NCBI GenBank assembly: GCA_965218295.1
Contig: CBDCKN010000009.1
Location: forward strand, 448,001 to 512,000
Direction of reading: 5' to 3'
From: Longimicrobiales bacterium
GTDB taxonomy: Bacteria > Gemmatimonadota > Gemmatimonadetes > Longimicrobiales > Gaopeijiaceae
Length of the DNA: 64,000 nt
Below are positions 40,929 to 41,306 of this stretch, piece by piece. How positions within the stretch are numbered: the first letter of the stretch is position 1; each line of letters opens with the position of its first letter. The notes under the pieces are model-generated. The model did not search any database, was not told where the DNA came from, and saw nothing but the letters and a program-made list of their open reading frames with translations. A program made the position numbers and the translations under genes.

Positions 40929-41306
40929 CTACTCACCTTCGTCGGCCCGCTCTGTCGCACTGAAGGCAGTCATCTGTTCGAGTTCGCTCACGATCTCCGC
41001 GACGGTGGTCACCGTCGTGTCGAACGTCACGAAACCCTCTGCCGCCTCGTACGAGAAACGCGCCTCCTGCACACCCTCGACTCGCTCCACGGCCAACCCG
41101 GCCGCTGTGGCGCAGCCGTCTCAGGTCATGCCGGTGACATCTAGCGCCACCGTTCGAAGCGTTCCCTCCACGTCGGCCATGTCGGCAGGTACATCCCCCT
41201 GCAAGGTCGCTCCGTGGTCCATCGCCGCGTCTTCGTGTCCGGGTATCTGGAGCAGAATGCCGCCCCCGATCACCACGGCCACAGCCGACCATTGTTTCCA
41301 ACCCAT
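40929..41306 (-). CDS. merP: MerP-like heavy-metal-associated (HMA) protein, probable selenoprotein (GMT-U-DGC)
   Basis: Readthrough of TGA 41121-41123 gives TVALDVTGMT-U-DGCATAAGLAVERVEGVQEARFSYEAAEGFVTFD..., a full HMA fold of 125 aa. AGGAG RBS. Hairpin CGGCC-GGGTT-GGCCG downstream. Lies directly after merT. Confidence 0.85.

Follow-up and report, generated by a model that had tools for sequence, protein, structure and literature searches.

A MerP-like HMA protein with a predicted selenocysteine in its metal-binding motif in Gemmatimonadota

The 64,000 nucleotide stretch of Longimicrobiales DNA that was analysed here, which we refer to as the window, encodes a small MerP-like HMA protein in which an in-frame TGA stands where the first cysteine of the metal-binding motif would be. 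The TGA very likely encodes selenocysteine (Sec), because many relatives have kept both it and a recoding hairpin. Judged from the sequence and its homologues, it is almost certain that SelB would bind this hairpin and that Sec-tRNA would decode the UGA, giving a 125 amino acid protein with a GMT-U-xx-C site. The reading as a whole, that this is the Sec form of a MerP-like protein which would capture Hg(II) for the adjoining MerT, is likely. Sec at HMA and mercuric-transport sites has already been predicted in print, which limits the surprise; the window family is a further predicted member of this kind.

Gene organisation and predicted protein

Translation of the reverse strand from 41306 to 40929 gave MGWKQW…VTGMT*DGCATAAGLAVERVEGV…VTFD…EGE*, with a terminal TAG ending at 40929 (Table 1). 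An earlier sequence-only reading had observed that the listed open reading frame stopped at GMT and that the same frame continued to this TAG, completing an HMA fold. This was borne out, as the read-through translation matched Pfam HMA (PF00403) at 38.9 bits, where the cut-off is 24.8; a match was also found for each of the 12 aligned members. The TGA was correctly placed at the first Cys of GMTCxxC, the sequence reading GMT-TGA-DGC, and Cys65 was intact in the window gene. An AGGAG ribosome site was located at 41321-41317 and merT ended 16 nt upstream of the gene. The N-terminal hydrophobic segment that had been described was also found, residues 7-21 having a mean Kyte-Doolittle value of 2.1. 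It was kept in alignment A2 and was followed by no obvious cleavage site; the gene product is predicted to be exported or membrane-anchored.

Table 1. Positions of the MerP-like gene, its elements and neighbouring features in the window
Feature	Position	Strand	Details
MerP-like HMA gene	40929..41306	-	125 aa with TGA read as Sec (U62)
In-frame TGA, predicted Sec codon (codon 62)	41121..41123	-	same codon in 28 other sequences
Metal-binding motif G-M-T-U-D-G-C	41112..41132	-	second Cys in 22/22 tabulated TGA sequences
Hydrophobic N-terminal segment, putative export signal or anchor	41244..41288	-	residues 7-21, hydropathy
HMA domain, beta-alpha-beta-beta-alpha-beta	40950..41159	-	residues 50-119, pLDDT about 95
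Predicted SECIS upper stem-loop GCGGCC-GGGTT-GGCCGT	41089..41105	-	loop starts 21 nt after TGA
merT-like transporter, CC motif, intact frame, no Sec	41323..41667	-	NF010314 E 4.9e-19, 68.6 bits, cut-off 150
Small 'DF family'-like protein (Cys form), recurrent neighbour	40615..40914	-	NF049942 46.6 bits, cut-off 70
merB pseudogene, three reading frames, two frameshifts	41680..42398	-	X2 contig matches both breaks, X3 contig the second
Putative MerR-type promoter/operator	42474..42505	-	TTGACT, dyad CCGTAC-N4-GTACAG, 20-nt spacer, TAGCTT
merR, 3′ part	42550..42936	-	TIGR02051 133 bits, below cut-off 150.85
merR, 5′ part (MSETSTLTIGALAQ)	44508..44549	-	matches N-termini of intact merR in L053, L054
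IS3-family element, 1571 bp, inside merR	42937..44507	+	NF033516 over cut-off; TTG direct repeat on both flanks
UGSC-family predicted selenoprotein	38250..38795	-	TGA at 38498; NF041046 146.7 bits, cut-off 125; loop AGTTT
ResA-like redoxin + TPR protein, probable selenoprotein	36480..37925	-	TGA at 37703, W-U-A-G-C, hairpin GTGCC-CGGGT-GGCAC; NF041054 67 bits, below cut-off 300
550-aa fusion, N-terminal CxxC redoxin + 350-aa region	38807..40459	-	directly upstream of the UGSC gene

The TGA codon in sequencing runs and in relatives

Among the matches listed, contigs of X2, a run of study P2, and of X3, a run of study P1 (which may be where the window itself was sequenced), crossed the TGA codon with 0 differences, the X2 piece across the codon being 1749 nt, and four further runs showed no other letter at 41121-41123. 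Contigs from RNA libraries (X17 and X18) of close relatives also crossed the codon; these were not counted as expression.

At the aligned codon TGA was present in 29 sequences, which belong to 28 genomes and comprise the window and 28 other Gemmatimonadota sequences (the relatives with names were Gemmatimonadota MAGs), and Cys was present at the same column in 25 more distant homologues. Identity of the other TGA sequences was 36–70% in the aligned subset, and the 52 codons downstream of the TGA had 40-71% identity to the window in the 21 other TGA sequences tested. Alternation of Cys and TGA at this column, with conservation on both sides, had been proposed as the check on the sequence-only reading and was thus observed. 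The contrary outcome, in which close orthologues would all have TGC or TGT and the TGA would be private, did not occur, as the closest orthologues all carried TGA.

When 60 relatives were searched, each of the seven best matches had one TGA. A profile search of 301 genomes of the order gave 25 matches in 24 genomes, 18 with TGA, including the best 17. Of 401 genomes of the phylum 37 were matched; TGA was carried by all 11 matches below E 1e-30, and of 27 weaker matches 26 were without it, the exception being in G454, which is outside the 29 sequences counted. Counts across relatives are not independent. Duplicates (L052 = L023, L027 = L141, L029 = L145) were removed before counting, and the 25 Cys sequences include one MerA N-terminal domain and leave out L184, L186 and eight weaker phylum matches. 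Four single-domain Cys proteins (P0053, P0131, P0158 and P0160) came from a representative search dominated by multi-HMA proteins. A metagenome scan used a Cys-only pattern and was blind to TGA forms; its 80 matches, 28-46% identical, were left unused. A tblastn search of plasmids gave no match. In the protein database 8 of 10 matches ended at GMT, where gene callers cut, so that mer operons of Gemmatimonadota are under-annotated; the other two matches were full-length with Cys.

In trees built on 67-68 columns the Sec forms clustered, with 4 changes compared to about 14-20 when shuffled. Three Cys proteins were nested inside the Sec cluster of these short trees, which are poorly resolved and include SECIS-constrained columns; this placement hints at Sec-to-Cys reversions.

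A hairpin conserved with the TGA

The bacterial SECIS model in Fig 2A of PMC13188914 has a 3-9 nt loop, a 4-16 bp stem, a G in the first two loop positions, a distance of 16-37 nt from the UGA and an MFE of <= -7.5. The window hairpin lay within all four constraints of this model, having a 5-nt loop (GGGTT), 6 bp, a distance of 21 nt and -10.2 kcal/mol. At a fixed register, under a hairpin rule chosen once the data were known, all six pairs formed in 21/29 TGA sequences and five of six in the other 8. Among the Cys sequences, 6/6 pairs formed in 1/25 and 5/6 in 5/25; some Cys homologues pair at 5/6 because the stem also encodes the conserved residues A-R-V-A. Across 22 TGA sequences 98.5% of 132 cells paired and three of the six pairs had two-sided changes, a level of pairing and covariation that was reached by 0/500 shuffles, with slid registers at 27-68%. 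RNAalifold returned the same stem and no other. Third-position identity, calculated pairwise at fourfold sites with pairs that are not independent, was 0.89 (631/708) at the four stem sites compared to 0.44 (2263/5119) elsewhere, the stem sites ranking 1-4 of 39.

By a rule set after the data had been seen, a similar hairpin followed 358 of 88,087 TGA triplets of the genome (0.4%), equal to the frequency after other codons. Folding energy by itself discriminates SECIS elements poorly in the window genome: its z value was -2.2 for the MerP-like gene, but three further genes predicted to encode selenoproteins had -0.7, -0.1 and +0.7. An Rfam scan of 36000-45000 gave 4 chance matches and no SECIS family.

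The loop GGGTT was unique to the window copy among the 29 sequences, 25 of which have CGTGT or CGGGT. As the nearest contigs (four runs, 1-6 differences) have AGGTT instead, one recent change made Arg70 a Gly in the window copy; Arg occupies this position in the 28 other TGA sequences. The window copy has three departures from near-invariant residues, the family range being 0-6. Loops in other predicted selenoprotein genes of the window genome were comparable (CGGGA, CGGGC, CGGGT and AGTTT). Contig G271:C20 has two Sec MerP-like copies (L144 and L158) 30 kb apart, one with loop CGTGT and the other with AGGCT.

Sec machinery and other predicted selenoproteins

The window genome (G000) has selA, selB, selD and tRNA-Sec, all over cut-off, selD itself with a TGA. 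In the order sample, selA was found in 16/17 TGA-bearing genomes and was missing from one 88% complete draft. This co-occurrence lends weak support, since the background was already 207/301 order genomes, a tally that includes G127.

Three predicted selenoprotein genes, the MerP-like, UGSC-family and ResA-like genes, lie within 5 kb on one strand (Table 1); that the ResA-like gene encodes a selenoprotein is probable. The 350-aa region of the fusion protein upstream of the UGSC gene had no NCBIfam match. A de novo scan of the selenoproteome by codon score was noisy (375 candidates) and recognisable motifs only were kept. The resulting list covers C3:514260 (+), C9:541654 (+), C6:731 (+) and C15:340900 (-) of G000, with the motifs HW-U-PWC, DFV-U-PWC and CHY-U and with SelD. 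The genes with these motifs, which we take to be AhpC/Prx-like, DsbA-like and AhpD-like respectively, and SelD are by motif probable further selenoproteins. An array of 17 tRNA genes was also seen on one strand within 2.4 kb of contig C9 (G000:C9:278187-280522).

Fold and family assignment

An AlphaFold2 model built from a 12-sequence alignment had a confident HMA domain preceded by a low-confidence helix and linker. It matched the MerP structure 1osd with a TM of 0.94 by target length and an rmsd of 1.1 Å; Cu-ATPase and CopZ domains matched about equally, and Cu-ATPase domains ranked above MerP in the fold search. The MerP identity proposed in the sequence-only reading was upheld by fold, motif and position, the gene being encoded after merT in 25/29 loci. 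It did not extend to the curated TIGR02052 model of MerP, for which the window protein scored 39.1 bits against a cut-off of 92.55 (L164 scored 44.8), close to the 38.0 bits of CopZ models. With MerP (TIGR02052; 1osd, 1afi) the family shares the HMA fold, the GMTxxxC site, the N-terminal hydrophobic segment and the position after merT. It differs in having Sec instead of the first Cys, and the domain of the window protein is preceded by a low-confidence linker of 25-30 residues in which His, Met and acidic residues abound.

The best NCBIfam match was to NF041115, UxxU_metal_bind (E 2e-17), a stand-alone HMA selenoprotein that was matched by 12/12 aligned members; scores were 63-64 bits, under the cut-off of 95. 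This is a 74-position model with two Sec (UxxU), whereas the window family has one Sec (UxxC), the second motif position being Cys in 22/22, and an N-terminal extension. Predicted Sec at soft-metal transport sites is likewise known from a cation-transporting ATPase E1-E2 (UxxC), from the MerT/CopZ fusion-like NF045683 and from MerT-family selenoproteins. These are a P-type ATPase, a fusion or a membrane MerT, whereas in the window family the small protein with the Sec is encoded on its own, next to a MerT that has Cys only; NF045683 scored 30 bits on the window protein against a cut-off of 375.

A Sec-containing 'Mercuric transport protein MerP' was named in Table 2 of the GOS survey (PMC2398784) from 2 sequences of 1 sample; the table entry gives no domain, motif or Cys homologues, and the 2026 table of 119 families (PMC13188914) does not have it. 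In this Table 1 the UxxU protein, the UxxC cation-transporting ATPase and a MerT-type protein are given as predicted; no stand-alone UxxC MerP is among the 119 families; the accessible part of PMC9312934 agrees. MerT selenoproteins are mentioned in the accessible part of bioRxiv 10.1101/2022.07.06.499078, and that of PMC1976440 has nothing specific on Sec-MerP. A literature search, with subscription journals and supplements outside its scope, found no paper on a Gemmatimonadota Sec-MerP family.

The mer neighbourhood across relatives

merT was directly upstream of the TGA gene in 25/29 loci and was not so in 4/29. Its product keeps Cys-Cys in the TGA loci and not Sec. merR, merA, merB and the small DF-family-like gene recurred in the 0.2-4 kb flanks of the TGA loci; merR, merT, merA and merB make up the mer operon gene set, in which MerP is the periplasmic Hg scavenger (PMC3466566, accessible part). 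MerA was over cut-off in 8/18 TGA-bearing genomes, adjoining the TGA gene in 7, compared to 7/8 Cys-form genomes; the other 10/18 TGA-bearing draft genomes had no MerA over cut-off. Modules of merT-merP-DF without nearby merA recurred, for example in L052 (4 kb flanks).

A 458-aa flavoprotein resembling MerA and dihydrolipoamide dehydrogenase, without the C-terminal Cys pair, had a TGA at the first Cys of the redox disulfide (GGT-U-VNEGCVP). It was found in 3/401 phylum genomes, at L188:2913-4286 (-) in G447, L189:2837-4210 (+) in G435 and L190:2339-3712 (+) in G218. All three copies carried the TGA and were 71-75% identical, and two lay directly after merT-merP. No NCBIfam selenoprotein model matched at E <= 1e-30 and no clear hairpin was found. 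The flavoprotein is a candidate uncatalogued selenoprotein, a MerA-like reductase of this kind being absent from the 119-family table of PMC13188914.

State of the operon in the window

The gene had been described as following merT under a MerR operator. merT is indeed directly upstream, but the site at 42505-42474, which we take to be a MerR operator, is separated from merT by a broken merB; a sigma-70 scan found 0 sites. The decay of the operon had been overlooked in the sequence-only reading. The first 14 codons of merR, forming its 5′ part, are split from the remainder by the IS3 element, which has inverted repeats at 42943-63 and 44481-501; the comparison with sequencing runs covered a stretch short of this insertion. 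Dozens of full-length copies of this IS3 family, with 90-100% identity, are spread across the 3.57-Mb genome, a heavy IS load. In the window genome, which is 90.7% complete, no MerA was over cut-off (best 376 against 454 bits); the intact merR and the merA expected of a functional mer operon were thus not found. With merR split, merB frameshifted twice and no merA found, the module is the remnant of a decaying mer operon, and this copy may be silent.

Proposed mechanism

Binding of SelB to the hairpin would lead Sec-tRNA to insert Sec at the UGA; where selenium is absent, only a 61-aa stub would be made. Granted this recoding, it is highly probable that the N-terminal helix would place the HMA domain outside the cytoplasm and that U62 and C65 would bind Hg(II), in a two-coordinate fashion, before handing it to the Cys pair of MerT and then to MerA where this is present. 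Compared to a thiol, a selenol is more acidic, being ionised at periplasmic pH, and it binds Hg more strongly. The ionised selenol would allow faster capture of Hg at trace concentrations. A literature search on MerP cysteine chemistry found no paper.

Alternative explanations

The broken state of the adjoining merR and merB invites the view that the TGA is itself a further lesion of the operon, due to nonsense mutation or sequencing error. Sequencing error was ruled out by the X2 and X3 contigs, which are identical at the codon, and by the agreement of four more runs; a private nonsense mutation was ruled out by the same TGA in 28 other sequences, in which the frame beyond the TGA is open and conserved and the hairpin is conserved with it. 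We give this view next to no credence. There is similarly almost no chance that an altered code assigns TGA to Trp or Cys, or that the TGA divides a true two-part gene. A changed genetic code was rejected because TGA terminates ordinary genes in the window genome and its relatives, and the sole TCA-anticodon tRNA among 50 found was tRNA-Sec. A TTG start 24 nt after the TGA does open a 55-aa ORF, but the motif is absent from this ORF, and most orthologues have GTG where it has TTG. The family may also be a real selenoprotein of which the window copy is a silent or decaying remnant without a mercury role, a possibility that we take seriously while leaning against it. It would account for the IS3 element in merR, the two frameshifts of merB, the lack of a MerA over cut-off in G000 and the change of the loop from AGGTT to GGGTT with Arg (28/29) becoming Gly. 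Yet uninterrupted frames with ribosome sites have been retained for merT, for the MerP-like gene and for the DF gene, every stem pair forms, the loop has stayed within the SECIS model and three departures from near-invariant residues fall inside the family range; moreover, merA may be unassembled, the genome being 90.7% complete, and modules like that of L052 do without a nearby merA. A silent window copy is compatible with our explanation at the level of the family.

Readings that accept the Sec and give the protein another role were also weighed. The Hg-Se bond could be too strong for hand-over to MerT, so that the Sec form would be a terminal sink, holding Hg outside the cytoplasm, and not a shuttle. 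The stronger Hg-Se binding, the lower frequency of MerA in TGA-bearing genomes (8/18 against 7/8) and the Cys-Cys of their MerT point in this direction, but these genomes are few, related to one another and in draft form, seven of the TGA loci adjoin a full merA, merT is kept in 25/29 loci, suggesting hand-over, and a mixed Se/S site may exchange quickly. On balance a terminal sink is unlikely. A selenoprotein for another soft metal (Cu, Ag or Cd), or a selenenylsulfide redox centre acting with the thioredoxin-like DF neighbour, is very unlikely. HMA folds do not reveal their metal, CopZ is the name of the Atlas cluster nearest to the Cys homologue P0002, UxxC motifs usually serve redox functions (PMC13188914, accessible part) and a few loci lie outside a mer context (L149, and L142 partly). 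These points are opposed by the neighbours merR, merT, merA and merB, which define mer operons (accessible part of PMC3466566), and by the best regulator match, which was to MerR and not to CueR or ZntR (133 compared to 97-102 bits). A Sec-MerP that would pass Hg(II) to MerT is the reading that we prefer.

Implications

The wider proposition, that Gemmatimonadota possess a selenium-armed Hg trap, is quite unlikely on present comparisons. The binding of Hg by Sec-MerP would be tight enough for merT-merP(U)-DF modules to protect cells without MerA, and other lineages would have added the GGT-U-VNEGC MerA-like reductase. If true, there would be a selenium-dependent branch of mer operons, Hg-Se antagonism would be a bacterial resistance mechanism and the natural Sec-to-Cys reversions could be used as controls.

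Mercury is usually regarded as a poison of selenoproteins. Here, in contrast, selenium has apparently been placed inside a mercury-handling protein. Of the entries tabulated in the 2026 catalogue (PMC13188914), 16 have experimental verification, and none of these is a Sec-HMA or mercuric-transport family. The MerP-like family offers Sec and Cys counterparts that are small, fold well and share an operon context, so that the effect of Sec at a metal site is directly testable.
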